DNA of 24,289 nt from Trueperaceae bacterium (GCA_040905465.1 JBBDRK010000076.1:1578-25866), one strand, 5' to 3'; positions 1 through 16,127 are shown, numbered from the stretch's first letter. Notes: a model not told the origin generated them from the sequence alone. Program-made: numbers and translations.

Positions 1-380
1 CGAGGTTCCCTGAGATCAGAATGCTGTCGAAGTACTCTGCGATACCGGTCGCTTCGATCTTGGTCGTCTGAGAAAGGCTCGAGCCGTTGCTGAAGATGGA
101 CCGCCTCGAAGCAACGGGCGCGAAAGTCTTGCAGCAGCTCCTCTGCGCCGGCGCTCAATTGGAACTCTGCGCACAAGGTCTGGTAGAGCAGCCCCTTATC
201 ACCGTAACCGTTGGCGTCGAGTTCCAGGAAACGCCGGGCAAACTCCTCGCCGTCGTTCTTGCTCGAGTCCGAGAAACGGGCGAACTGGCGGGGCACGAAC
301 TCCAGGACCGAGCGGCTGCGGTCGACCAGGGTACCGTCGAGATCGAACAGAAAGTCCATATCCATGCGACCCCTGCTCAT
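1..380 (-). pseudogene. HAD-superfamily hydrolase (YjjG/YfnB-like), frameshifted with an internal deletion; runs off the window
   Basis: Manual translation from ATG 380 gives ...MDFLFDLDGTLVDR... (HAD motif I DxD). At about 97-101 the homology switches frame to IFSNGSSLSQTTKIEATGIAEYFDSILISG (motif II region). The usual intervening 'PG..E.L..L...G..LG' segment is absent. Confidence 0.75.
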
Positions 381-478
381 CGCGGGAGAGTGGAACGCGG
401 AGGCTCCTTCGGCGTCACCAGTTCGAGACCCGGAAAGTAGTAACGGTAGAGCCGAGGATCGCGCGTAAGGAGTCTCAT
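377..478 (-). pseudogene. C-terminal remnant of a PIN-domain (VapC-like) toxin
   Basis: The 33-aa ORF MRLLTRDPRLYRYYFPGLELVTPKEPPRSTLPR* resembles the LLTRDxxxYRxYFPxLxLxxP tail of a VapC/PIN subfamily. The N-terminal PIN core is missing. Confidence 0.55.
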
Positions 479-496
479 CCTCCTCGCGTCGGAGAC

Positions 497-889
497 CTAC
501 CCGCCGGGCCGGCGATTTTCGTCCTGTTTCAGGTGGTATCGGATGCCCTTGCCGGCCAGCGGCTCGTCTGCGAAGCGTGGGACCACATGCAGATGGGCCT
601 GCGGTATCGTCTGCCCGCCGACGCGGCCGACATTCCATCCGATGTTGTAACCGTCGGGAGCGTAACGAGCGTCTATCCACGCCTTTGCTTGGTGCAGGAG
701 TTCGAACGTCGCTGCCCACTCCACCTCCGTCAGATCGAAAACGGTCGCGCGAGATTCGAAGGGCACGATCAAACCCGAACCCGCGAGCACCTCACGCCCG
801 GGGATGGTCAGGAACGCGCAATGTTCGTTTCCGAGGGTCAACTCCTGCTGCGGAAAGCTCTCCATGTCGAAGTGCGGCGGCAAGCGCAT
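497..889 (-). CDS. HIT-family nucleotide hydrolase
   Basis: Contains PDGYNIGWNVGRVGGQTIPQAHLHVVPR. Start placed at ATG 889, 5 nt after a -10-like TACCCT (900-895); alternative ATG at 865. Confidence 0.85.
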   Translation of the reverse strand: MRLPPHFDMESFPQQELTLGNEHCAFLTIPGREVLAGSGLIVPFESRATVFDLTEVEWAATFELLHQAKAWIDARYAPDGYNIGWNVGRVGGQTIPQAHLHVVPRFADEPLAGKGIRYHLKQDENRRPGG

Positions 890-1047
890 GCGACAGGGTA
901 ACAGCCGAGAAAACCTTGATCGAGCGGTTCGAATGGGTGCCTCCCCGCGCCCAGATCGGGCGGCAGGGCAACCCGCTCGGCGATCACCTGGGCAAGCGCC
1001 CCTTCGTTCAATCCGGCACCATGCACCAGCTTTTCCAGGTGTCCGCC

Positions 1048-1083
1048 TCGGCACAGTACCAGACGTCTGGTATAGTACTGGTA
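1048..1083 (+). promoter_or_regulatory. Putative gntR promoter with overlapping operator
   Basis: TCGGCA-N17-TATAGT with TG extension. Perfect 16-bp palindrome TACCAGACGTCTGGTA (1057-1072). Motif TCTGGTATAGTACTGGTA (1066-1083) is shared with the ABC operon promoter. Confidence 0.6.
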
Positions 1084-1159
1084 CGAGCGTAACCGGAAGT
1101 TGGTCGACCTGTCAAAGAGGTGCCTCGTCGCTCGCGACGATCCAGGGAGGCGGTAAACC

Positions 1160-1972
1160 ACGAAGTCGTTCCTGGTAATAGATAAGCGTCTACCGACGCC
1201 GGCGTATCTCCAGCTTCAAGGTGAAATCGGTAGGGCAATTGCGTCCGGCAAGTTGATTCCGGGGACGGCCCTGCCCTCCGAGCGGGCACTAGCTCAGGCG
1301 CTGGCCCTCTCGCGTATGACGATACGCAAGGCGCTCGAGGAGCTGGTTGCCGTCGGCTTGGTCGAAAAGCGTCAGGGATCGGGCACGTACATTCGTGAGC
1401 TGCCGGTGGAACAGACCATAGACCGACTCGCCGGCTTCAGTGAGGAAGCCGCACAGCTTGGGTTTCGTCCCAGGAGCAGATTTCTCGATGTGTCGACTCA
1501 TCCGGCTGATCCAAACATTGCTACGTCGCTCGGTGTCGAGTCGGGTCAATCGCTTCTGCGGATAACCAGGTTACGACTTGCCAGCGATGTGCCACTTGCC
1601 TTGCAGGTGGCGCACCTCGGACCGATACTCGCGGACCTTTCGATCGACCGCCTGCGAGGGGTGGGCTCGCTCTATCGGACGATAGAGGCTCAGTTCGGAA
1701 TTCAGCCGAGCAGGGCGCGGCAGAAAATTGCTTCACGACTTCCGACACCGTGTGAGCAGGACCTCCTCGAGATCGGTCCACAAACTCCGGTACTTGCTCT
1801 GGAACGGACGACTTTCGACTCAGAAGATCGGGCATTCGAATTCGTTCGCAGTGCCTATCGCGGCGACAGGTACCGCATGGCGCTCGACCTCCGTTCGTCT
1901 GGCGAAAGCCATCCGGTTGCCGATACAGTCGCGGTGGTCGTCGGACCCGATCCTCACTCCGACGTTCCCTAG
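1160..1972 (+). CDS. GntR-family transcriptional regulator, HutC/DasR/NagR subfamily (wHTH + UTRA)
   Basis: IDKRLPTPAYLQL...PGTALPSERALAQALALSRMTIRKAL...QGSGTYI, then a UTRA-type C-terminus. The conserved frame extends upstream of TTG 1253 to an in-frame TAA at 1154. Proposed start is ACG 1160, 9 nt after AGGGAGG. Confidence 0.9.
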   Translation, partial: TKSFLVIDKRLPTPAYLQLQGEIGRAIASGKLIPGTALPSERALAQALALSRMTIRKALEELVAVGLVEKRQGSGTYIRELPVEQTIDRLAGFSEEAAQLGFRPRSRFLDVSTHPADPNIATSLGVESGQSLLRITRLRLASDVPLALQVAHLGPILADLSIDRLRGVGSLYRTIEAQFGIQPSRARQKIASRLPTPCEQDLLEIGPQTPVLALERTTFDSEDRAFEFVRSAYRGDRYRMALDLRSSGESHPVADTVAVVVGPDPHSDVP

Positions 1973-1987
1973 TGTGGGGTGACAGAC

Positions 1988-3580
1988 TCAGTAACCAACG
2001 GCCTGCCCGTCTCTGCGCTGGTCCGAGCCGGCGACGTAGCCATCGTCAAGCCGGTAGATCAGCTGTGCCCCTCCGAACAGGTAGCTTTCCCGCACACCGT
2101 ATTCGGTAATGCGGTGCCCCCGCTGACGAAGCCCTTCCAGGACGTCAGCTGGAAATCCCTTCTCGACGGCAACCTCCAGTCCGCTCATGACCCGCCATCG
2201 TGGCGCATCTGCAGCAACCTGGGGATTTTGTCCGAAGAAGCAGGTTCGAATAACCATCTGAGCATGGCCCTGAGGTTGCATCGGCCCGCCGATCACACCG
2301 AAGCTCATCAACGGCATTCCACCACAGGTTACGAAACCGGGCATTATCGTGTTGAAGGGACGTTTATACCCGCCAACCTGGTTGGGATGCCCCGGTTCGA
2401 GGGTGAAAAACGAGCCACGATTCTGCAGGCTGATTCCGGTGCCGGGCACGACCAGACCCGAACCGAAATTGGAGCAGTTCGATTGGATGAGAGAGACCAT
2501 TATCCCGTCGGCATCGGCACTCGTAAGGTACACAGTGCCGCCGGATCTGGGCACTCCGTGTCCTGGATCCCGAGCCATCTTCACATCGAGAAGCCGAGCA
2601 CGGTCGGTGAGGTAGCCGGCATCCAGGAAGTCCGTCGCGCTGACCTCCATACAAGCTGGCTCGGCTACGTAGCGACGCACATCGACGAGGGCGAGTTTCA
2701 TCGCTTCTATCTGCAGGTGCAGCGAATCCACCGAATCGACAGCGTGGTCGCAGAACGGCACATTCTCAAGCAGCCCCAGCATGATGAGGGCCGCTAAACC
2801 CTGGCCGTTCGGTGGCAGTTCATGCAGTTCGACATCGCCAAAGGCCTGTGAGATAGTGTCGCACCACTCAGATTGATGCATCGCCAGGTCGGACCCCGTG
2901 AGCAGTCCACCCGATTCATCGGAATACGCGGCGATACGGTCGGCCAACTCTCCGTGATACAGGGCAGCCCCTTCCGATTCAGCGATCAGCTCCAGTGTTC
3001 GGGCCTGCTCCTCGAATCTGAACACTTCACCGGGAGCCGGCACGCGTCCGTTCGGCAGGAAGTACTTCGCGAAGTCGGGGTAATCCGCATAGTCCCCAGC
3101 AACGGTACTCCAGAAATGTGCCGTGATCGGTGAAACTGGAAACCCGTTCCTTGCATACGCTATGGCGGGGTGGAACAGTCTTTCGAATGGGAGCCGTCCG
3201 AAGCGCTTTGAGAGCGCCACCCAGCCGGAAACGGCACCCGGCACCGTTACCGTATGCCAACCCCTCAACGGCATTTCCGTCGCTCCCACCAGGTGATTCG
3301 GGTCGAGAGCTCCCGGAGAGCGCCCGGAGGCGTTGAGGCCATGTAGGCCCGAGCCGTCCCAAACTATGGCGGATGCGTCGCTGCCGAGGCCGTTGGAGGT
3401 CGGTTCGACTACGGTAAGGGCGATCGCCCCGGCAAGCGCCGCGTCGACTGCGTTACCTCCCTCGAGCAACATCCTGATTCCGGCCTGGGAAGCGAGTGGC
3501 TGGGAGGTGGCCACAACGTTTCGGGCCAGGACGGGCATGCGAGCCGACGGATATCGGTGCTCATAGTCGAGAGTGCTCAT
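1988..3580 (-). CDS. ggt: Gamma-glutamyltransferase-family Ntn hydrolase, cytoplasmic (YwrD-like)
   Basis: GGNAVDAA, VVEPTSNGLGSD, GTVY (nucleophile Thr), SLIQSN..FGSG, LQNRG, KRPFNTIMPG, GGPMQPQGH, SDQRRDG. No signal peptide. Confidence 0.92.
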   Translation of the reverse strand: MSTLDYEHRYPSARMPVLARNVVATSQPLASQAGIRMLLEGGNAVDAALAGAIALTVVEPTSNGLGSDASAIVWDGSGLHGLNASGRSPGALDPNHLVGATEMPLRGWHTVTVPGAVSGWVALSKRFGRLPFERLFHPAIAYARNGFPVSPITAHFWSTVAGDYADYPDFAKYFLPNGRVPAPGEVFRFEEQARTLELIAESEGAALYHGELADRIAAYSDESGGLLTGSDLAMHQSEWCDTISQAFGDVELHELPPNGQGLAALIMLGLLENVPFCDHAVDSVDSLHLQIEAMKLALVDVRRYVAEPACMEVSATDFLDAGYLTDRARLLDVKMARDPGHGVPRSGGTVYLTSADADGIMVSLIQSNCSNFGSGLVVPGTGISLQNRGSFFTLEPGHPNQVGGYKRPFNTIMPGFVTCGGMPLMSFGVIGGPMQPQGHAQMVIRTCFFGQNPQVAADAPRWRVMSGLEVAVEKGFPADVLEGLRQRGHRITEYGVRESYLFGGAQLIYRLDDGYVAGSDQRRDGQAVGY

Positions 3581-3676
3581 CGACTGCTGCCAGTCTGCGA
3601 CTGCGGGCGACGGGACCGATGGGCCTCGCTGTTACGACCTGCCGGAATCCAGCTAGACCAACCACGAGTCATTTCC

Positions 3677-4510
3677 TCAATCCTCCCAATCTGACGGGAC
3701 CGTGGTGGTGACTACACGAGGTCGAATCGGGCATCGGACGCAAGGAGGGTTTTCATTACGGCCCTCTTGCAACAGATTGGCTACGACCTTGAAGCAGTCG
3801 CGCAGGCGGAAGAGCGTAAACTTACATTCTCCGACCTTTGCAGTGCGTTCCAGCCCTTGTCTCCTCATCTCTTCGCCGTATCTTCCGTCGCCCGTAAGGG
3901 GGCAACTTCTCTCGCGCCACCCCCATGTTCTGACTGGAGCGATCGAGCCGTCGGGCATGCGCACAGGGTACTCTTCGGTCCGCTTGCCTAGACACGGGGC
4001 GCCCGTAACGACCTCAACGACATGGTGGAAAGTGTTCACCTCGTATCCGACGCCCATGAGAAGACCGTAGCCACCTGCCTGCAGCAGCAGACCGAGTGGC
4101 GAATCCTCGCCCATCGTGAGAGTGCGGTGATGCCCGTTCACGAACCTCGACGACCCGCCGCCCCAAGCGGCGAAGGGATGCGTGGGATTCAGGCTCCGGT
4201 ACACGGCCGGCATTCGCCAGAAAGTATCGGCGATCACGCCGTTGGTTGTGGGTGTAGTCGCCGGGTCGTATATTCCGGCACCGCCTTCGCCGAAGGGGGC
4301 GCCGTGGTTGAAGGAGGGCATCAGTAGAACGCCAGCAGGCGTCAGCACCTCCAGCAGGGCATCAATGACGGTGACGGGACCGCCCTCGACCCGTCCGAAG
4401 CTGCTGAGGGAGCTGTGAACCATCAGCTTCATCTCGGCGTCAACTCCGACCTGGCGCAGGCCCGAGAGAATCATCTCTTTCGTGACTAGAGGGGATGATA
4501 CCTGTGTCAC
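3677..4510 (-). CDS. AAC(3)-family (Antibiotic_NAT) N-acetyltransferase
   Basis: MVHSSLSSFG..EGG..TVIDALL, LLMPSF, DPATTP, RSLNPTHPFAAWG, DSPL, LLMGVGYEVNTFHH..E. GTG 4510 has a GGAG SD 5 nt upstream; alternative GTG at 4525. Confidence 0.88.
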   Translation of the reverse strand: MTQVSSPLVTKEMILSGLRQVGVDAEMKLMVHSSLSSFGRVEGGPVTVIDALLEVLTPAGVLLMPSFNHGAPFGEGGAGIYDPATTPTTNGVIADTFWRMPAVYRSLNPTHPFAAWGGGSSRFVNGHHRTLTMGEDSPLGLLLQAGGYGLLMGVGYEVNTFHHVVEVVTGAPCLGKRTEEYPVRMPDGSIAPVRTWGWRERSCPLTGDGRYGEEMRRQGLERTAKVGECKFTLFRLRDCFKVVANLLQEGRNENPPCVRCPIRPRVVTTTVPSDWED

Positions 4511-4535
4511 TCTCGCTCCGGCCACCGTCGCGACG

Positions 4536-5363
4536 TTACTTCAGCGCTCCGGCGGTGAGGCCACGGATGAACTGCCGGGACATGATCACGTAAAGAGCGA
4601 TCACCGGTAGGGCTGCTACCGTGAGACCTGCGAACAGGACCGCCCAATCGGTACTGTATTGACCCATGAAGACGGTAAGCCCCAGAGGTAACGTCTTGAG
4701 ACTTTCACTCTGAATGAATACGAGCGGAAAGAAGAAGTCATTCCAAACCGGCACGAGGTTGTAGATCGCCACGATGACCAGGGCAGGCCGGATGAGCGGC
4801 AGCATGACTCTGAAGAGGGTCTGAAACTCGCTCGCGCCGTCGATGCGCGCCGCGCTCTCGAGGTCCCTCGGTAGCGTCCTCAGGAAGCCGGTGAGTATGA
4901 ATACCGCGGACGGAAGGCCCTCGGCCGCGTAGATGCAAACCAGGCCGAGCAGGTTGTTCGTCAGGCCCATCGACTTGAACTGTATGAACAAGGGAATGAC
5001 GGCTAGTTTCAGCGGGAGCATCAGGCCGGAAAGGAAGAACAGATACAGCAGTTCGTTGCCCTTGAACTGGTACCGGGCGAGCGCGTACGAGGCCATTACC
5101 CCTAGAACGAGGATCAGCAGGATCGCGCCGCTGGTTACAACTACCGAGTTTCGAAAGTAGAGTGTGAAGTTGGTCTGCTCCCAGACTCTGATGAAGTTGG
5201 CAAGACTCCAGACATCCGGAAGGCCGAACGGGTTTCTGAAGATCTCTCGCGTGGACTTGAAGGCGGTCAGGCCCATCATCACTATCGGATACAGGATTAC
5301 GACCGTATGCGTTATCAGGATTATCTGGATCAGACTCTTGCTGCTTAGGTTCCGCAAGTTCAT
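4536..5363 (-). CDS. Carbohydrate ABC transporter permease (MalG-like)
   Basis: Hydrophobic TM segments, EAA-like loop LESAARIDGA, WNDFFFPL, C-terminal FIRGLTAGALK. ATGA overlap with the upstream permease stop. Confidence 0.93.
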   Translation of the reverse strand: MNLRNLSSKSLIQIILITHTVVILYPIVMMGLTAFKSTREIFRNPFGLPDVWSLANFIRVWEQTNFTLYFRNSVVVTSGAILLILVLGVMASYALARYQFKGNELLYLFFLSGLMLPLKLAVIPLFIQFKSMGLTNNLLGLVCIYAAEGLPSAVFILTGFLRTLPRDLESAARIDGASEFQTLFRVMLPLIRPALVIVAIYNLVPVWNDFFFPLVFIQSESLKTLPLGLTVFMGQYSTDWAVLFAGLTVAALPVIALYVIMSRQFIRGLTAGALK

Positions 5364-6328
5364 GACAGTTCCATCTCGCGTTTCCGCAGGATTCGCGTCC
5401 AGACGATCGAAACCGTAAGGACGAACAGGAAGAGGAGAACTGCTAATGCGCTGCCGCGTCCGAAGTCCTGGAGTCCCGCCGAGACCTCGCCGAAGGCGGT
5501 GCGGTAGAAATAGAGGGCCAGGACGTCCGTCGCCCGTCCGGGCGGACCGTCCACACCGGCCATCGCATAGGGCAGGTCGAACCAGTTGAAGGAACCGATG
5601 AAGGTCAGGATCACGATTATGGTTACAGCAGGCGCGATCAGGGGCCAGGTAACGTAGCGCGCAATGTGCCATTCGTTTGCCCCGTCGAGTTTCGCGGCCT
5701 CGAAGTATTCGATAGGAATGGACCGAATCGCGGCCAGAAAGACGATTATCGGGAAGCCCAGCCAACGCCACATGTTGACCACGATTATCGACATGAGCGC
5801 GGTCGACTCCTGGCCGAGCCAGGGCTGCGACAGCGACTCGAGGCCTACCGATTCGAGAAACTTGTTGACGAGCCCGAACAGAGGGTGCAGCAAGAGCTTC
5901 CACTGGAACCCGACCAACACCATTGCGAGGGTAACGGGAAGAAAGAAGACAACCTGGTAGAAGCGCGTGCCCCTGGGGTTGGACCCAAGCAGGAGTGCCA
6001 GGAACAGGGCCAGCCCATTTTGAACCGTCATTCCGAATGCGAACACGATCACGTTGTTTTTGAAGGCGTTTATCGTCCATGCCTGATATGGCGGGTCGAA
6101 GAGTACGCGGCGGAAGTTGTCCAGACCAGCGAAACCTTCGCGAACGATCCCATTCCAGTGGAACAGGCTATATATCAGCGCGGAGACGATCGGGTAGATC
6201 TCGAAGACGATGAAGAAGATAGCTGGAGGCAGCAAGAGCGTGGCGAGCCACAGGGCTCTCCGGCGGTGGTAGCTCAGCCTGAATCTGCTCCTGCCGCCAG
6301 CCCCGGCGACAAAACGTTCTACGGCCAC
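5360..6328 (-). CDS. Carbohydrate ABC transporter permease (MalF-like)
   Basis: FAGLDNF, GLVNKFL...QPWLG, EAA motif YFEAAKLDGA, multiple TM helices. Confidence 0.93.
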   Translation of the reverse strand: MAVERFVAGAGGRSRFRLSYHRRRALWLATLLLPPAIFFIVFEIYPIVSALIYSLFHWNGIVREGFAGLDNFRRVLFDPPYQAWTINAFKNNVIVFAFGMTVQNGLALFLALLLGSNPRGTRFYQVVFFLPVTLAMVLVGFQWKLLLHPLFGLVNKFLESVGLESLSQPWLGQESTALMSIIVVNMWRWLGFPIIVFLAAIRSIPIEYFEAAKLDGANEWHIARYVTWPLIAPAVTIIVILTFIGSFNWFDLPYAMAGVDGPPGRATDVLALYFYRTAFGEVSAGLQDFGRGSALAVLLFLFVLTVSIVWTRILRKREMELS

Positions 6329-6349
6329 GTTAGCCCTTTCACTCCTGGG

Positions 6350-6387
6350 TCCCCGCCCCCTATAGGTAATGCGCGAGGGGGCGGGGA
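6350..6387 (-). other. Intercistronic stem-loop downstream of the SBP gene (mRNA stabiliser or partial terminator)
   Basis: Perfect 12-bp inverted repeat TCCCCGCCCCCT-N14-AGGGGGCGGGGA. No U-tract follows on the coding strand. Confidence 0.7.
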
Positions 6388-6419
6388 TATTCGAACGAAG
6401 CGTTATTACAGTTTCTGCT

Positions 6420-7664
6420 CTAACGTTGCTGGAACGGTTCGTAGTATTGAGTTATGCCTTCCGTTACTTCCTTGGCCAGCTGTTCTGGGCTCATGCTGCC
6501 GGCATACATGCCCGGAAGGCGTTGCTGCATAAGGACGGACCCCGTCGGCGCTTCGTAGCGGAAGCCGACGAGCATGATGTAGGGTGTCGAGTTCTGATTG
6601 AACTCGGTGACCTTCTTCAGTAGCGGGTCGTCAGATACGACGCCTGGAATCGGTGACACGTTCGCGAGCTTGTCCGTGAGCTGTTGTCCGAATTCCGGCG
6701 AGGCCAGGAACGTGACGAACTCGATCGATTCCTCCGGGTGATTCGTATCAGCGCTGACGGCATACCCACCATCGAGGAACCAGGAGACAAGCGGGGTGTC
6801 GTCCGCCGACTCGGGCGGCGGCGCCATGACGTCGAAAGCCAGGTCGGGGTTTTGGTTGCGAAAGTTGGCAATCTCCCATGAGCCGCCCGCGTACATGGCC
6901 GCGAGTTCGTTGAGAAACAGGTTTTGAGCTGTTGCCCGGTCGACACCCGAGAATTGGGGAGCCATGTACTCGGTCAGTTCGCTGACCTTTTCCAGGGCCT
7001 GGATGAAGCGTGGGTCTTCGAAGGTGGTCTCACCTGCAACGACCTGATCGAAAAAGTCTGCCCCGTAGAAATTGGGGGCGAAGACTCCGGTGAAGATTTC
7101 GGCTTCCGAAGCCGTAGCTGTTCCGTTCGCCAGGGCAATGTAACCGGCATCCTCGATCGTCTTGGCGGCCGCCAGGAATTCATCCCAGGTCTCAGGAGGC
7201 GCGAGTCCGAGTTCGTCGAAGATGTCGGTGTTGTAGTAGACGATGAGCGTTTGCGAGGCGAACGGAACGGCGTACACATTACCGTCCTCCCTCAGTCGCT
7301 CCCCATTCAGGGCGAGATCGGGAAAGTTCTCGAGTGCATCCACCTTGTCGTCGAGCCGCATCAGGTACCCGGGTGCAGCATATGTTTCGAAGTTGCCGTA
7401 TGCCCGCACATGGATTATGTCCGGCGCTTCACCGGCCGTAAAAGCGGTCGTAAGAATCGTGTCGTATGTGGTCGATTCGAAGGCGTTGTAGTTGATGCGG
7501 ACCCCGGGGTGATCTTCGACGTAGCCGGCAATGATCTCTTCGTACGCCCACCTGTCCTCGACACGCCAACTCCAGAAATCCAGAGTCACCTGAGCCGATG
7601 CAATGCCACAGAGAAACATGGCTACCAGAACTATGCGCACGGGCGTATACCGCCTCGCAATCAT
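6420..7664 (-). CDS. Carbohydrate ABC transporter substrate-binding protein (family 1)
   Basis: Sec signal ending ASA-Q, then TLDFWSW, GEAPDI, YAVPF, YYNTDIFDELGLAPPETWDEF, AAMYAGGSW. GAGGAG SD before ATG 7664. Confidence 0.93.
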   Translation of the reverse strand: MIARRYTPVRIVLVAMFLCGIASAQVTLDFWSWRVEDRWAYEEIIAGYVEDHPGVRINYNAFESTTYDTILTTAFTAGEAPDIIHVRAYGNFETYAAPGYLMRLDDKVDALENFPDLALNGERLREDGNVYAVPFASQTLIVYYNTDIFDELGLAPPETWDEFLAAAKTIEDAGYIALANGTATASEAEIFTGVFAPNFYGADFFDQVVAGETTFEDPRFIQALEKVSELTEYMAPQFSGVDRATAQNLFLNELAAMYAGGSWEIANFRNQNPDLAFDVMAPPPESADDTPLVSWFLDGGYAVSADTNHPEESIEFVTFLASPEFGQQLTDKLANVSPIPGVVSDDPLLKKVTEFNQNSTPYIMLVGFRYEAPTGSVLMQQRLPGMYAGSMSPEQLAKEVTEGITQYYEPFQQR

Positions 7665-7782
7665 GAGAACTCCTCTCGAACGCACTTGCACGTAGCGGCC
7701 TCCATTCACGTGGAGTCACGTGAAGGCGTCCCGCTGCTTTCGCTGCTGGCTACCGGTAGACTTTTGCCGTCAGGCCACTGTG

Positions 7783-7812
7783 AACATACCACTTCTATAC
7801 CAGATGAGTCAA
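7783..7812 (-). promoter_or_regulatory. Sigma70-type promoter of the ABC-aac(3)-ggt operon with internal operator
   Basis: TTGACT-N18-TATGTT with TGn extension. TCTGGTATAGAAGTGGTA (7804-7787) fills the spacer. Confidence 0.7.
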
Positions 7813-7901
7813 GAGATCGGCAGTGCCCACCCGGCTCGAACAGGTCCTGCCGCGCGCCCCGAGCTTGAAGGTGAAATCGCCCCTCAGTATGAAACTTGCC
7901 A

Positions 7902-7931
7902 TTGACGCCGCCGAGGCACGCCTCGTACGCT
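7902..7931 (+). promoter_or_regulatory. Putative sigma70 promoter for the lipoprotein gene
   Basis: TTGACG-N18-TACGCT upstream of an AGGAGG SD. Confidence 0.5.
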
Positions 7932-7951
7932 TCGGCTCTGAGGAGGCAAGC

Positions 7952-8302
7952 GTGAACCGTCTCGCCCTGGTCGTCGGGCTCTTCTTGCTGGTACTGTCCT
8001 CCTGCGCGCCACAGCCGCAGGTGGAGAACAACGTCATCCCCACGCTGGTCTCGACCACCGTCCAGGGAGACACCGTCATCTTGCAGGGCCGCTACTTCAG
8101 TGACGGCAGGGACGGCGAAAGCGCCGGTTCCTACGTTCTCCTCGGTGCCAACTACAGCGGCACCGGCGGTGTGCGGGCCGAAATCGTGTCCTGGAGCGGT
8201 CACCGCATCGAAGTCGCAGTGCCGGCCGGAGCCGGCTACGGCTACGCCTTCGTCTTCGTCGACCGCATTCGGTCCAACGGACTGCCCGTAAACCTGAACT
8301 GA
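7952..8302 (+). CDS. Lipoprotein, probable IPT/TIG-like beta domain
   Basis: AGGAGG SD then GTG. Lipobox LSSC. VILQGRYF...IVSWS..RIEVAVP pattern typical of IPT/TIG domains. Confidence 0.8.
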   Translation: MNRLALVVGLFLLVLSSCAPQPQVENNVIPTLVSTTVQGDTVILQGRYFSDGRDGESAGSYVLLGANYSGTGGVRAEIVSWSGHRIEVAVPAGAGYGYAFVFVDRIRSNGLPVNLN

Positions 8303-8326: not shown

Positions 8327-8354
8327 GAGGCCGCAATCGCGGCCTCATTTTTTT
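8327..8354 (+). terminator. Rho-independent terminator
   Basis: GAGGCCGC-AATC-GCGGCCTC followed by ATTTTTTT. Confidence 0.88.
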
Positions 8355-9732: not shown

Positions 9733-9828
9733 GCCAGCGAGTACACGCCAACTGGTAGCCAGCGCGGCCGGAGGAACACCGTGCCCCGAGCGGCATCGAC
9801 ACGACACATCACGAGGAGCCAACGAGTC

Positions 9829-11625
9829 ATGCAACGAACGCATCAATGCGGCGCCCTGCGCGCCGAGCACCAAGGCAGCGAAGTAGTCCTGCAGGGCTGG
9901 ATCAACCGCCGCCGTGACCTGGGCGGCCTGATCTTCCTGGACATCCGTGACAGCAGCGGCATGGTCCAGGCGGTGGTGGAGCCGGACGACGCCGTGGCGT
10001 TCTCGGTGGCGGAGACGTTGCGGAGCGAGTACGTAACGCAGTTGCGCGGGGTCGTACGTCTGCGCCCGGAGGGTCAGCGCAGCGAACGACTCGCCAGCGG
10101 CGCAGTAGAGGTCCTGGTCCAGGACCTGGCAGTGCTGGCCGAGTCGCGTACCCCGCCCTTTCAGATCGACGGCAGCGTCGCCGGGGACGAAGTAAGCGAG
10201 GAGTTGCGCCTGCGTCACCGCTATCTCGACCTGCGCCGGCCGGAGGCCGCTCGGCCGTTGCTCGTGCGCCACCGCGTCTCCAAGGCGATCTGGGACTATC
10301 TCGACGAGCGCGGCTTCGTCCAGATCGAGACTCCGCTGCTCACCCTGTCCACCCCCGAGGGCGCCCGCGACTATCTGGTACCGGCGCGCGTGCGGCCGGG
10401 TAGCGTCTACGCGCTGCCACAGTCGCCCCAACTCTTCAAGCAGATGCTGATGATAGCGGGGTTCGACCGTTACTTCCAGATCGCGCGCTGTTTCCGGGAC
10501 GAGGACTTGCGGGCCGACCGCCAGCCGGACTTCACCCAACTCGACATCGAGATGAGCTTCGTCGACCAGGACGATGTGTTGACGCTCAACGAAGAGTTGA
10601 TGGCGCACGTCGTAGCGGCAGCGACCGGGCGCGAGACAGTAACGCCCTTTCCGCGCATCGGCTACCGGGAGGCGATGGACCGCTACGGATCGGACAAGCC
10701 CGATCTGCGCTTTTCGCTCGAGCTGACCGACCTCACCGAGGCGTTCCGAGCCAGCGAGTTCAAGGCGTTCGCCTCGGTCGCCGCCTCGGGAGGCGCGGTG
10801 AAGGCGCTGTCGGTGCCGGCGGTTCAGGCCAAGGAGTTGAGCCGCAGGCATCTTGGCGAGCTCGAGGAGCATGCCAAGCGCCACGGCGCCAAGGGACTGG
10901 CATGGCTGCGTCGCGCCGGAGACGGCTTCACCGGGCCGATCGCCAAATTCGTGGAACGGGAGAAGGAGGCTCTCAGCGCAGCGGCTCCCGCCGATGGCGA
11001 CCTGCTGCTGCTGGTGGGGGACGCCTGGAACACCGCCTGCACCTCGCTCGGAGCCGTACGCCTGGAGTTGGCCGGCCGGTTCGGGCTGCGCGACAGCGAA
11101 GCTTTCAACTTCCTGTGGGTAGTCGACTTCCCGCTGCTCGAGCGCGGCGAGGAGCGCGGCGAGGAGCCCGGTGAGGGCGAGGCCGGCTGGACCTACATGC
11201 ATCACCCCTTCACCCGGCCCCACGACGAGGACCTGGAACGGCTCGAGTCGGACCCGGGCAGCGTCCGTGCCTGGGCTTATGACCTGGTACTGAACGGCAA
11301 CGAGATCGGTGGCGGCTCGCTCCGTATCAACAGGCTCGACGTGCAGGAGCGTATGTTCACCGCGCTGGGCTTCAGCAATGAGGAGGCGCAGGCCCGATTC
11401 GGATTCTTCCTCGAGGCGCTCTCTTACGGCGCACCGCCGCACGGAGGCGTGGCCTGGGGGCTCGACCGCCTGGTCATGCTGCTCGCCGGTCAGAAGAGCA
11501 TTCGCGACGTCATCGCGTTTCCCAAGAATCAACGGGGCGTGGACCCGCTCACCGGCGCGCCAGCGCCGGCCGATCCGAGTCAACTGCGGGAGCTCGGCCT
11601 GGAAGTCATCGAGGAGCAGCAGTGA
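9829..11625 (+). CDS. aspS: Aspartate--tRNA ligase (bacterial type with GAD domain)
   Basis: [86 protein letters not shown]; alternative in-frame GTG at 9781. Confidence 0.97.
11140..11175 (+). repeat. 3 x 12-bp in-frame tandem repeat inside aspS
   Basis: GAGCGCGGCGAG GAGCGCGGCGAG GAGCCCGGTGAG encodes [12 protein letters not shown]. Confidence 0.75.
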
Positions 11626-12458: not shown

Positions 12459-13757
12459 ATGCAAAGTACGACCATTAGCCAACTCGGCCGCCAGGTAGGC
12501 GCCCAGGTCGAGATCGCCGGCTGGCTCACCGGACTCCGCTCGAGCGGCAAGATCGCATTCCTGCAACTGCGCGACGGCAGCGGCTTCGTCCAGGGGGTAC
12601 TGGTGAGAAGCGAGGCCGGCGACGAACTGTTCGAACGTGCCTTGGAGCTTACCCAGGAGAGCAGTGTGCGAGTGCGTGGCGAGGTCCGCGAGGACAAGAG
12701 GTCGCCCGGTGGAGTAGAGCTCGGGGTCAGCGGTGTGGAGCTGGTCTCCCCCGCCGTCGACTATCCGATAACTCCCAAGGAGCACGGGGTCGACTTTCTG
12801 ATGGACCGGCGGCACCTCTACCTGCGCCACAAGGGCCCATGGGCGCTGATGCGGGTACGCGACGAGCTCGAACGGGCGATCCACGACTTCTTCGGCGAGC
12901 GTGGCTTCGTTCGCTTCGACGCTCCGTTTTTCATGCCGACCGCCGTCGAGGGGACGACCAACCTGTTCGAGATCGACCTCTTCGGCGGGGACAAGGCCTA
13001 CCTGTCGCAGTCGGGGCAGTTGTACGGCGAGGCTGGAGCGCTGGCCCTGGGACAGGTGTACACCTTCGGGCCCACGTTCAGGGCCGAGAAGAGCAAGACC
13101 CGGCGCCACTTGCTGGAGTTCTGGATGGTCGAACCGGAGGTCGCCTATCTGGAACACGAGGGCAACGTACGGCTTCAGGTCGACCTCATCAGCTACCTGG
13201 TGGGAAGAGTGCTGGAGCGCCGTCGTACCGAGCTGGATATGCTCGAGCGCGACGTGAGCCGGCTCGAGCCGACCGCCAACGGCGATTTCCCGCGCATCAC
13301 CTACGACCAGGCGCTGGACCTGCTGCGAGACAAGGGAGAATCTCTCGAGTGGGGGGACGATTTCGGGGCTCCACACGAAACAATCCTCGGAGACTCGTTC
13401 GACCGTCCGGTAGTGATCGAGGCCTGGCCTACCGCCGCGAAGGCGTTCTACATGGAGCCGTTCGAGGGTGATCCCGGCAGGGTCAAGAACAACGACATGA
13501 TTGCGCCGGAGGGGTACGGAGAGATAATCGGCGGTTCCCAGCGGATCCACGACCTCGAGCTGCTGGAACGCCGCATCGCCGAGCACGGCCTGCCGGCGGA
13601 CGCGTTCGCCTGGTACCTGGACCTACGGCGCTACGGAAGCGTGCCGCACTCCGGCTTCGGAATGGGCCTGGAACGGGTTCTGGCATGGATAACCGGAGCG
13701 CACCACCTGCGCGAGGTAATCCCCTTCCCGCGGATGCTCACCCGGCTCTACCCCTAG
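12459..13757 (+). CDS. asnS: Asparagine--tRNA ligase
   Basis: [78 protein letters not shown]. Confidence 0.96.
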
Positions 13758-14332
13758 AGCGCCGCGGGCACGGCCAGGTGCTCCAGGAACACCCCGGCGG
13801 CCTCACCGTGCAACAGGAAGCGGATCTGATCCACGCCGTTGGCGAGCAGCGTCTCCTGCACCGAACGCAGGAGCCTGAGTTCGCCCGCGACCGACAGCGG
13901 CACCGGACCGGCGGGCCGGAAGTCGAGTATGGCCACCGACTGCCGGGCGAGGCTCTCGACGTAGACCGTGGGTGTGGGCAACGCCTCGGGCCACTCCCCG
14001 TCTGCCATCTCCCGGCGCAACGCGTCGAGGATCGCCTCGAGCCGGCCAGGAGCCGCGTCGGGTAGAGCGACCCGCGCGAACACCGGAGCCTCCAGGCCGC
14101 TGGCGTCGTACCGCATCAGACGCACCTCGCGCGTCTCGAGCGCCTCCGGCTCAGGGTCGACGATTTCGATGGCCGGAGGAGGTGGGTGCTGTTCGCCCCT
14201 GCCGAGCAGGAAGAACGCCGCGGACACCGCGAAAACGAGCAGCGCTATCAGCGGCTCGGGCCGCAACAGGGCCTGTCGCCGCGTCTCTGCCGGCAGGTTC
14301 AGCCTCAGGGGGAACTTCCAGCGAGGTCTCAG
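13754..14332 (-). CDS. Membrane-anchored GerMN-domain-like protein
   Basis: One N-terminal TM helix and a C-terminal AILDF...[29 protein letters not shown] GerMN-like pattern; lies downstream of an amidase as is typical. Start is either CTG 14332 (coupled) or TTG 14266. Confidence 0.75.
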
Positions 14333-15696
14333 GGCGACACCTCACGCCCCTGCAGCAACGCCGCTACCGCGTCGGCTACCGCCTCCACGACGGCTTCGCC
14401 GACTTCTTCGGCCGGCAACTCGAGGAGCAGACCTCGTCCCGCAGCACCTGCCAGAACCGCCAACGGAGCTGACTGCGCATCCTCGACCCTTACGCCCGAC
14501 CGGGCGAAGACCTCGGACTCCAGTCCGAGCGCATAGCGCCGGCCCACCTCGACATCGGGGACGAGGTTGAGCAGCAGTCTGCGTCTCAGAGCGTCGGTCG
14601 TGCCGGGAAGATCGGCCTCGGCGTTCCGCCTCACGGCCAGGTCCAGGTTGGCCGCGCCATCCGCTTCAGCCAGGTAGTACACGCCGATCGCTCCATCGGC
14701 GTCCGGATGTACATGGATCGACAGGAACAGGTCGGCGCCGACGCCCATCCCCGAGCGACTGGACAACGCGACATCGTGGTCCTCGCTGCGCGTCAGCTCG
14801 GTGCGCAGTCCCCTTCGATCGAGCTGTTCGGCCAGTCGGCGGCTGAAGTCGAGCGTCATCCCGCTCTCCGGCGAGCCGTCGACGATCATGCCGCCGTCTT
14901 CACCGCCGTGAGCCGCGTCGATCACCACGCGGGGAGCCTGCGCAGCCGGCTCCTCCTCTGCCGCTTCCGGGAAGATATCGACCACCAACCGGTAACCCCG
15001 TCCCTCCGGCACCGTGTAGACCGTGTACCCGACCTCCGGTTCGAGCGACACCCTCACCACGGCACCTCCGCGTTCGCCCAATGCCACCGCCCGGCTGAAG
15101 TAGCGGCCGTCCTCGACGGCCGCCAGCTGCGCCGCGTCGCTCCTGTCGAATCTCACCTCGAGCGAGTTCACCGGCTCGTTGTAGTACAGCGCGTATGACA
15201 CGTTGGAGCTCAGCGAAACGATCAACCGGTCCGCGCCGGACTGTCTCGTCCAGTCGAGGTCGCGCACCTGACCCCGCGGCAGCACCACCATCACCCGCTC
15301 ACGCTCGGGCACGTATGTCGTGTAACCGAGAAACGACCGTGCCACGAGGCTCACCGGCAGGAACAACTGGCCGTCGTCGAAGACCGCGCCCGTACCCGGC
15401 CGCTCCACGCCGTTCACGTTGACGGTCATGCCCTCGGTTGCGGCATCTTCCGGCTCGGTGAAGGTTCGAAGCACCAGCATGCGCCCGCCCAGTTCCAGGC
15501 TCACCAGTCCGGAACCGTAGTCGATCATCGAGCGAGCGCCCAACGCTTCGGCGTAAGCCCCGGCAGGCGCGTACGACACACCCTCGACCAGGGACAGGGT
15601 AAGCCCTGGTACTTCGCGGCCGTTGACGCTCAGGGTCGGAGCCGCCGTTGCCCCCGCCATCAGCAGCAGAACGACCAGTGCCAGGCTCCGCCTCAT
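14329..15696 (-). CDS. N-acetylmuramoyl-L-alanine amidase (Amidase_3) with N-terminal accessory domains
   Basis: Signal peptide ending ATA-A; VVIDAAHGGED..E, LTRSED, ADLFLSIH, LLLE. ATGA overlap with the smpB stop. Confidence 0.85.
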   Translation of the reverse strand: MRRSLALVVLLLMAGATAAPTLSVNGREVPGLTLSLVEGVSYAPAGAYAEALGARSMIDYGSGLVSLELGGRMLVLRTFTEPEDAATEGMTVNVNGVERPGTGAVFDDGQLFLPVSLVARSFLGYTTYVPERERVMVVLPRGQVRDLDWTRQSGADRLIVSLSSNVSYALYYNEPVNSLEVRFDRSDAAQLAAVEDGRYFSRAVALGERGGAVVRVSLEPEVGYTVYTVPEGRGYRLVVDIFPEAAEEEPAAQAPRVVIDAAHGGEDGGMIVDGSPESGMTLDFSRRLAEQLDRRGLRTELTRSEDHDVALSSRSGMGVGADLFLSIHVHPDADGAIGVYYLAEADGAANLDLAVRRNAEADLPGTTDALRRRLLLNLVPDVEVGRRYALGLESEVFARSGVRVEDAQSAPLAVLAGAAGRGLLLELPAEEVGEAVVEAVADAVAALLQGREVSP

Positions 15697-16127
15697 CGTT
15701 CGGAGAGCGCTCGCTCGATCTGTCGCTTGGCATCCTTCTCGGCCTGCTGGCGCCTCTTGTCGTGCATCTTTCGGCCTCTCGCGAGGGCCAGCATCACCTT
15801 GGCCCAACCATCTTTGAAGTAGAGTTTCGTCGGTACCAGCGTCAGCCCCTTGCGTTCAAGACCCCGCGCTATCTCCTCGATCTCCCGCTTCTTGAGCAGG
15901 AGCTTGCGGCTGCGCAACGGCTCGTGATTGTTGTAGGAGGCGTCCTTGTAGGGCTGTATGTGCATGCCTTCCAGGAAGACCTCCCCGCCGCGCATCCGGG
16001 CGAACGACTCGGCGATAGAGCCTCCTCCCGAACGCAACGACTTCACCTCCGAGCCGGTCAGGGTTATCCCGGCCTCGAAGGTCTCGAGGAATTCGTAATC
16101 GAAGCTGGCGCGGCGGTTCTGAAGCAT
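15693..16127 (-). CDS. smpB: SsrA-binding protein
   Basis: NRRASFDY...FEAGITLTGSEVKSLR, RSRKLLL, LARGRKMHDKR. Confidence 0.97.
   Translation of the reverse strand: MLQNRRASFDYEFLETFEAGITLTGSEVKSLRSGGGSIAESFARMRGGEVFLEGMHIQPYKDASYNNHEPLRSRKLLLKKREIEEIARGLERKGLTLVPTKLYFKDGWAKVMLALARGRKMHDKRRQQAEKDAKRQIERALSER

Follow-up and report, generated by a model that had tools for sequence, protein, structure and literature searches.

In Bacillus subtilis, the genes murQ-murR-murP-amiE-nagZ-namZ form an operon for peptidoglycan recycling and N-acetylmuramic acid catabolism, in which a transporter is placed under an amino-sugar-phosphate-sensing repressor and is accompanied by the enzymes MurQ, NagZ, NamZ and AmiE (PMC8054146). 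Related repressors of N-acetylglucosamine (GlcNAc) use, namely NagR (YvoA) of B. subtilis and DasR of Streptomyces, are GntR/HutC proteins that bind dre sites. It has also been reported that glucosamine (GlcN) ends on fragments of peptidoglycan are re-acetylated before NagZ cleaves them, and GlmA re-acetylates such non-acetylated GlcN ends so that NagZ-type enzymes can act (Reith and Mayer 2011, as cited in the relevant passage of PMC4680927). Here we compare with these systems a locus from a Trueperaceae bacterium, contained in a stretch of 24,289 nucleotides (nt) (JBBDRK010000076.1:1578-25866; hereafter the window, with coordinates counted from its first letter), in which the genes of a sugar ATP-binding cassette (ABC) importer are followed by those of an acetyltransferase of the AAC(3) fold and a gamma-glutamyltransferase (GGT)-like hydrolase and meet a convergent gene for a GntR-family regulator. 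We lean toward the reading that this locus was acquired horizontally and is a variant, particular to its lineage, of an operon for the salvage of amino sugars or peptidoglycan sugars. The secure part of this reading, as judged from sequence comparison, is a predicted amino-sugar or cell-wall-sugar importer of foreign origin, a NagR-like repressor and an accessory slot that holds two unusual enzymes.

Open reading frame (ORF) calls combined with Pfam and NCBIfam profiles place five genes on the minus strand in the left 8.3 kb of the window. The first encodes the 414-residue solute-binding protein (SBP) of a CUT1 sugar ABC importer (6420..7664; SBP_bac_1, E 2.5e-39), which carries a signal peptide and has a GGAG 6 nt before its ATG. 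The next two encode permease 1, which is MalF/UgpA-like (5360..6328), and permease 2, which is MalG/UgpE-like (4536..5363), both with the BPD_transp_1 domain; they are followed by the AAC(3)-fold (Antibiotic_NAT) acetyltransferase (3677..4525; Pfam E 2e-49), with a GTG start at 4525 or, behind a GGAG, at 4510, and by a cytosolic GGT-like N-terminal nucleophile (Ntn) hydrolase of the 2NLZ type (1988..3580; G_glu_transpept, E 1.6e-133) that has no signal peptide. The intergenic distances are 91 nt (SBP/permease 1), -4 nt (permease 1/permease 2, the start of the latter overlapping the stop of the former as ATGA), 10 nt (permease 2/acetyltransferase) and 96 nt (acetyltransferase/GGT), and a sequence scan revealed no terminator-like sites between the co-oriented genes of the import operon. 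The gene for the HutC/UTRA GntR repressor of the NagR/DasR type (1157..1972, plus strand; GntR and UTRA Pfam domains) converges on the GGT gene, with 15 nt between the two stop codons. No ABC ATPase gene was found within the locus, and two MalK-type ATPase genes are encoded elsewhere in the genome; the presence of SBP_bac_1 and two MalF/MalG-type permeases at the locus, with MalK-type ATPases elsewhere, identifies the transporter as a CUT1 importer. The Pfam and ORF scan of positions 1-8300 detected no glycosidase, kinase or dehydrogenase, and the same region encodes neither the MurQ etherase nor an N-acetylmuramic acid (MurNAc) kinase or phosphotransferase system (PTS), nor NamZ or NagZ hydrolases. 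The original prediction, made from the sequence alone, had described exactly this arrangement, that is, a co-oriented run with short gaps, a convergent GntR gene, a GGT-like protein of the cytoplasm and the lack of the three enzyme classes named first. The probable source run has also been assembled a second time; in that assembly, a single contig covers positions 894-7967 with one difference, so that the gene order cannot be put down to a single assembler.

Orthology at the sequence level and gene neighbourhoods show that the importer, the regulator and their operator belong to a family-wide system tied to genes for the salvage of MurNAc and other peptidoglycan sugars. Relatives of the SBP at 50-70% identity number in the hundreds, and the SBP family is present (E<=1e-80) in 60 of the 128 genomes of the same bacterial family, which the nearest named SBPs indicate to be Trueperaceae, the unpublished genome G111 being counted among the 60. 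A metagenome scan with the SBP yielded 7 loci, all at 25-31% identity, and thus no context for relatives at 64-70%. True orthologues are found at two best loci, that of genome G023, with 64-66% identity in the SBP, 78% in the permeases, including permease 1, and 56% in GntR, and that of G080, with 63-66% in the SBP and 72-80% in the permeases. Permease 2 is 78-80% identical to its orthologues in both, and in 57 further family genomes the SBP orthologue has 39-45% identity. The operon of G023 reads NanE, BadF-type kinase, GntR, SBP, permease, permease, MurQ, with its MurQ and NanE above their NCBIfam cut-offs. When the neighbours within about 9 kb were surveyed at 30 importer loci from 18 genera, 18 loci (12 of the 18 genera) contained at least one of MurQ, the exo-muramidase NamZ, NagZ, AnmK, a MurK-like BadF kinase, NanE, NagA and NagB-II. 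One layout, NagB-II<MurQ<GntR <> SBP>permease>permease>NamZ>kinase, is recurrent (L109, L113-L116); the MurQ, NagZ and NanE proteins of L088 and L089 pass the NCBIfam cut-offs, and NamZ was assigned by a Pfam match. The slot behind permease 2 is occupied in these relatives by NamZ and a kinase, by MurQ, or by a kinase and an M42 peptidase; in the window's copy, the same slot holds the AAC(3)-fold acetyltransferase and then the GGT paralogue. It appears that members of this family usually take up MurNAc-type sugars through a CUT1 ABC importer controlled by a NagR-like regulator, and a full-text literature search brought up no account of an ABC importer of this kind.

Across the 3.53-Mb genome, the predicted operator, TGGTATAGNNNTGGTA, is matched exactly at two places only, window positions 1068-1083 on the plus strand and 7787-7802 on the minus strand, one for each promoter, and a repeat finder independently returned both copies as an inverted pair (I7); the shared operator of the original prediction is thus borne out. 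According to a promoter scan, each copy overlaps a sigma-70-like promoter. Copy 2 (7787..7802, minus strand), TGGTATAGAAGTGGTA, which contains the dre-like half-site TGGTATAG, lies on top of the import-operon promoter TTGACT-18 nt-TATGTT, with a TG before the -10 box (7783..7812, minus strand), and copy 1, TGGTATAGTACTGGTA, accompanies the gntR promoter TCGGCA-17 nt-TATAGT (1048..1083, plus strand). Furthermore, a motif search located a dre-like half-site, TGGTCTAG, in the 96-nt spacer between the acetyltransferase and GGT genes (3653..3660, minus strand). The motif TGGTMTAG has three matches in the 24-kb window versus 0.41 expected, all of them in three intergenic regions of the locus, and an operator of the design TTGACn-N3-4-TGGTATAG-N3-(T/A)GGTAT precedes the SBP or gntR orthologues in L094, L095 and L097, which represent three other genera. 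The best solved relatives of the regulator are NagR/YvoA (E 3e-41) and DasR (E 3e-33), and its predicted assignment to the amino-sugar-phosphate-sensing kind, also made at the outset, is supported by this relationship.

The gntR gene itself is peculiar. Its frame is open from 1157 onward, and a canonical start is not reached until the TTG at 1253; a CTG at 1172 or an ATA at 1178 are the only starts that would keep the invariant N-terminus. The part of the frame upstream of the first ATG, GTG or TTG encodes the invariant IDKxLPTPAYLQL, and a GGGAGG is present at 1144-1149. Relative to its orthologues, the protein has a C-terminal extension of 24 residues, and the gene is placed at the end opposite to its usual location in relatives. 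An 18-nt direct repeat links positions 1212-1229, inside the 5' coding part of gntR, with positions 7862-7879, just upstream of the SBP promoter (17 of 18 nt identical). This repeat might be a remnant or scar of the 5' end of an ancestral divergent gntR, an idea that the alignment does not bear out, as it shows no similarity past about 20 nt.

Genes for the enzymes that were missing from the original prediction, namely a kinase, an etherase, a deacetylase and a deaminase, are found elsewhere in the genome, under a paralogous regulator. The region 184-208 kb of contig C49 (L101, L102) contains genes for NagA-like, NagB-II, NanE, kinase, MurQ, AnmK and NagZ proteins, an Opp-type importer with SBP_bac_5, an AmiE-like protein of the beta-lactamase fold and a GntR paralogue that is 65% identical to that of the window. 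Among the one-mismatch copies of the operator in the genome, the best is located in the divergent promoter region of this cluster, between the -35 and -10 boxes, and the half-site TGGTCTAG also occurs within the operator of the cluster. Given the paralogous GntR and the near-identical operator, the window operon resembles an additional uptake unit that is connected to a regulon of the same type. Because the salvage enzymes are encoded outside the window operon, its link to peptidoglycan is one of orthology and a shared operator rather than of gene content. This complete native peptidoglycan-recycling set also includes a phosphotriesterase-family protein and EamA.

Judged by composition and distribution, the block is foreign and young, that is, horizontally acquired. 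Its GC content is 0.596 versus 0.650 for the genome, in which just 3% of 8-kb intervals fall below 0.60, and the GC content at third codon positions of its genes is 0.61-0.77 versus 0.81-0.85 in the flanking native genes and in paralogues on other contigs. The SBP and the acetyltransferase are absent from the genomes of the same genus. A soil run of another study contains fragments of the gntR, GGT, acetyltransferase and both permease genes that are about 94-97% identical to those of the window. There is no tRNA gene in the window, where neither an integrase nor a transposase was seen beside the acetyltransferase gene; the left edge of the low-GC island lies beyond the start of the contig.

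The acetyltransferase matches Antibiotic_NAT (PF02522) with 168.7 bits against a cut-off of 25, over 231 of the 232 profile positions, and contains the motif N164-T-F-H-H168-V-V-E171. Across 12 clade members, H167, H168 and E171 are invariant and T165 nearly so (at least 90%), with Val in place of the Ala of TxPhiHPhiAE, the His/Glu catalytic motif of Antibiotic_NAT enzymes as given in the pertinent part of PMC8956665. Four Cys residues (178, 208, 262 and 265), including a C-terminal CxxC, are also invariant in this clade. An AlphaFold2 model (pLDDT 81.6, pTM 0.83) has BA2930 and YokD as its top Foldseek structures (E about 1e-22, TM 0.70-0.79), and AAC(3)-IVa is another of the structural matches; by sequence, the closest solved structures are BA2930, YokD and FrbF (E 3e-26 to 5.5e-22, 27-29% identity), all three reported in the same part of that source as inactive on aminoglycosides (PMC8956665). 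The scores against the NCBIfam models AAC_3, AAC_3_IV and AAC_3_II (103.8 vs 420, 92.6 vs 270 and 67.9 vs 480) fall far below the cut-offs. In AAC(3) enzymes, the cleft that receives the substrate is negatively charged, as stated there (PMC8956665); the protein encoded in the window, by contrast, has an isoelectric point of 7.2 and a net charge of 0. From these sequence and model comparisons, the enzyme looks metabolic rather than defensive, which supports the suggestion that a 'resistance' fold may serve scavenging here.

The closest relatives of the acetyltransferase, at no more than 60% identity, come from Chloroflexota, Nitrospirota, Spirochaetota and other phyla, and the clade is represented in only one of 363 other genomes of the phylum. 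The window protein lacks the C-terminal tail that is present in 8 of 11 aligned homologues. We fetched 36 homologue loci, of which 24 were prepared and 22 annotated (L006 and L015 were left out); sugar- or glycan-catabolic neighbours are found at 10 of the 22, two of these neighbours being sulfatases with an N-sulphoglucosamine-sulphohydrolase C-domain. Sulfatases of this N-sulphoglucosamine type lie directly behind the acetyltransferase homologue at L011:4835-6316 and L028:8858-10399, pairs that recall the lysosomal order in which N-desulfation of glucosamine is followed by N-acetylation. In the Anaerolineae loci L005 and L008 (and, by ORF layout, also in L006 and L015), the homologue is part of a conserved run comprising an FGGY kinase, a class II aldolase, the acetyltransferase and a DUF5107/TPR protein. 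Two further homologues, L034:1286-3955 and L036:6138-8741, from Gemmatimonadota and Latescibacterota metagenome-assembled genomes, are proteins of about 870-890 residues in which a C-terminal Antibiotic_NAT domain is fused to a long N-terminal part, for which a weak Peptidase_M28 match was obtained in L036.

The GGT-like protein scores 446.7 bits against PF01019 (cut-off 27), and its predicted nucleophile, Thr349 in GGT|VYL, aligns with position 391 of the E. coli enzyme (PDB 2E0W). It falls below the cut-off of the canonical GGT equivalog TIGR00066 (293.1 vs 357.85 bits). In a single pairwise alignment, E. coli residues N411, Q430 and D433 correspond to C, R and F in the window protein. These are the residues that we take to bind the free alpha-amino group of the gamma-glutamyl moiety; as they are not kept, an amide substrate other than glutathione is plausible. 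The protein matches PDB 2NLZ, a 'cephalosporin acylase', over its full length (E 3e-145), and shares with it and with the YwrD-type cytosolic GGT homologues the lack of a signal peptide and the nucleophilic Thr; to our knowledge, the physiological substrate of the 2NLZ/YwrD-type subfamily is not established. The genome holds three GGT paralogues, of which the window copy is the third and a divergent one. In a phylogenetic tree, the copy on contig C32 groups with proteins from genomes of the same genus (100/99); the branch that leads to the window copy is long (0.52) and its position is not fixed, with 9 of the 10 inner branches open; from the sequence data, the window GGT is evidently not the native orthologue. 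In most relatives, the native orthologue directly follows a gene for a membrane protein ending in ...HPA(L/V)LI(V)AGG.LG, as in L057, L059-L061, L063 and L065-L067, a conserved synteny that is shared by neither the window GGT nor the copy on C49.

If the locus is indeed a variant salvage operon, GlcNAc-6P, MurNAc-6P or GlcN-6P would release the repressor, and the TTGACT/TATGTT promoter would then drive a single SBP-permease-permease-acetyltransferase(-GGT) transcript. A MalK-type ATPase encoded elsewhere would power the import of a MurNAc- or GlcNAc-type sugar or disaccharide from cell-wall debris. The acetyltransferase might N-acetylate free amino groups, for example those of de-N-acetylated GlcN or muramic acid residues, the acetylated products would enter the NagZ/kinase/MurQ/NagA route, and the GGT-like amidase might cleave the gamma-(D-)glutamyl amide of stem-peptide remnants. 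The acetylation and the amidase reaction are the least secure of these steps; our reasons for proposing them are the kind of enzyme that relatives carry behind permease 2, the half-site ahead of the GGT gene and the precedent of GlmA.

Several observations weigh against this interpretation. Twelve of the 30 importer loci have none of the listed peptidoglycan genes nearby, the nearest solved relatives of the SBP (E about 1e-26) bind ordinary oligosaccharides, and JGI labels SBP relatives as raffinose/melibiose binders. A search of this genome for NamZ gave no match. In the gntR frame, there is no ATG, GTG or TTG upstream of the invariant N-terminal helix, and with the start codon missing or non-canonical, self-regulation may be broken. 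Homologues of the SBP, permeases, GGT and GntR adjoin none of the 36 acetyltransferase homologues, nor does any peptidoglycan gene. The importer, acetyltransferase and regulator are likewise absent from all 11 closest GGT loci, and the GGT family is present in 38 of the 41 genomes of the order in unrelated contexts, so that this copy may simply have landed behind the importer. A dre-like upstream site was found at 0 of 12 other GGT genes, and the GGT family is therefore no general member of the regulon. Finally, a GGT accompanies the importer at only one of the 30 importer loci (L089), and that protein is 27-30% identical and belongs to another subfamily. A recurrent association of the L089-type GGT with the importer was considered as well; this GGT occurs in 7 of the 128 family genomes and adjoins the importer only in G018, and we did not count the association as conserved.

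With an acetyltransferase at none of the 30 importer loci, the combination of genes seen in the window is not conserved at any of the related loci surveyed; this is the outcome that the original prediction had itself named as counting against it, and the claim of a conserved new pathway therefore fails. By comparison of these loci, the mixture of AAC(3)-fold, GGT and ABC importer genes is real but is a mosaic of one lineage rather than a conserved pathway. Accordingly, of the import-and-modify module that had been proposed, a regulated operon with two tightly spaced enzymes stands and the conserved pathway does not.

A mosaic of this kind could also arise by chance, if the acetyltransferase and GGT genes were dropped behind a salvage unit during transfer or rearrangement and are merely co-transcribed with it while acting on unrelated cytoplasmic substrates. 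We regard such a juxtaposition as unlikely, although it deserves to be taken seriously. The failure to find the combination among the 36, 11 and 30 related loci speaks for it, as do the youth and foreign composition of the block, the displaced gntR with its extension and without a canonical start, the acetyltransferase trimmed of the tail seen in most homologues, and the scatter of the GGT family over unrelated contexts in the order. However, an unrelated insertion does not readily account for the spacing of just 10 nt between permease 2 and the acetyltransferase and the lack of terminator-like sites between the genes, or for the half-site before the GGT gene and the confinement of all three TGGTMTAG sites to intergenic regions of the locus. 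Moreover, the slot behind permease 2 regularly holds enzymes for the imported sugar in relatives, and pieces of all these genes recur at about 94-97% identity in the run from another study.

The pathway put forward in the original prediction, in which an N-acylated (for example gamma-glutamyl) aminocyclitol, aminoglycoside-like compound or unusual amino sugar is imported, deacylated by the GGT and acetylated on the freed amine by the AAC(3)-like enzyme, seems to us quite improbable. The gene order and tight spacing are compatible with it, as are the intact catalytic motif of the acetyltransferase and a GGT that keeps the nucleophilic Thr but not the residues presumed to bind the alpha-amino group, for which a non-glutathione amide is plausible. 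Nothing, however, points to an aminoglycoside or aminocyclitol: the orthologues of the importer and regulator go with genes for MurNAc and GlcNAc salvage rather than aminoglycoside genes, the scores against the AAC(3) resistance models are far below the cut-offs, the nearest solved relatives are the three proteins reported inactive on aminoglycosides in the part of PMC8956665 cited above, the protein is not acidic, unlike what the negatively charged cleft described there would suggest, and the combination is not conserved. A genuine role of the AAC(3)-fold gene in aminoglycoside resistance, with the gene riding on a mobile island and the rest of the locus unrelated, is very improbable indeed, since the Antibiotic_NAT match (E 2e-49), the presence of AAC(3)-IVa among the structural matches and the foreign composition of the block are offset by 103.8 and 92.6 bits where 420 and 270 are required, by the non-resistance proteins BA2930 and YokD as the closest structures, by homologues at 53-60% identity among sugar-catabolic genes of uncultured anaerobes, and by the lack of an integrase, transposase or tRNA beside the gene in the window.

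The salvage reading thus moves an apparently exotic module of a resistance fold plus an importer into a known setting, the scavenging of bacterial cell walls and amino sugars. The AAC(3)-fold clade, with its intact motif, four invariant Cys, sugar-catabolic contexts and spread over many phyla, is a testable candidate for a native, non-antibiotic function, and the third GGT paralogue, which may have been recruited into an amino-sugar regulon, offers a handle on the role of the cytosolic 2NLZ/YwrD-type GGTs. A bolder generalization, which we consider decidedly doubtful, would be that the four-Cys clade, with relatives in Chloroflexota and many other uncultured phyla, consists of glucosaminide or muramyl N-acetyltransferases for glycan and cell-wall salvage. 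In the window operon, such an enzyme would act together with a 2NLZ-type GGT turned gamma-D-glutamyl muropeptide amidase, and modified fragments of peptidoglycan would be imported, re-acetylated and de-glutamylated. If true, the fold that gave rise to the AAC(3) resistance enzymes would have a physiological role other than resistance.

The remaining genes around the locus can be described briefly. The low-GC block also includes a HIT-family gene divergent from gntR (497..865, minus strand), a HAD-family hydrolase gene downstream of it that runs off the start of the window (3..380, minus strand) and, divergent from the SBP operon, a gene for a small lipoprotein-like product with the lipobox LSSC and without a Pfam match (7823-8302, plus strand). 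The latter gene is closed by a strong terminator-like hairpin (8327-8346) directly before hisS. Farther to the right, two genes for class II tRNA synthetases of the Asp/Asn type (12459-13757 and 9781-11625) are situated within 3 kb, with a gene for a Cof-type HAD phosphatase between them, and an Amidase_3 (MurNAc-L-Ala amidase) gene occupies 14329-15807 on the minus strand.

Compared with the described systems, each component of the locus combines familiar and divergent features. The half-site TGGT(A/C)TAG resembles the core of the dre sites bound by NagR and DasR, which we take to be TGGTCTAGACCA; unlike dre, the operator is no clear palindrome and comprises TGGTATAG and, after it, another TGGTA overlapping the -10 box, and unlike nagR and dasR, gntR has no canonical start codon here. 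The acetyltransferase resembles BA2930 of B. anthracis, YokD of B. subtilis and FrbF of Streptomyces in its fold and in the Thr/His/Glu motif, but is only 27-29% identical to them and differs in gene context; four Cys are invariant in its own clade. The GGT differs from 2NLZ and YwrD in being an extra paralogue apparently placed within an amino-sugar regulon. GlmA is a GNAT protein, unrelated to the Antibiotic_NAT fold, so that any likeness to the window acetyltransferase would lie in the proposed function and not in the fold. As to the B. subtilis operon, relatives of the locus carry the same set of NamZ, NagZ, MurQ and AmiE-like enzymes beside the importer; but where the part of the account that covers this operon has the PTS transporter MurP and the RpiR-type regulator MurR, the locus has a CUT1 ABC importer and a HutC/UTRA regulator, and in place of the hydrolases and MurQ given there, the window operon encodes an AAC(3)-fold enzyme and a GGT paralogue (PMC8054146).

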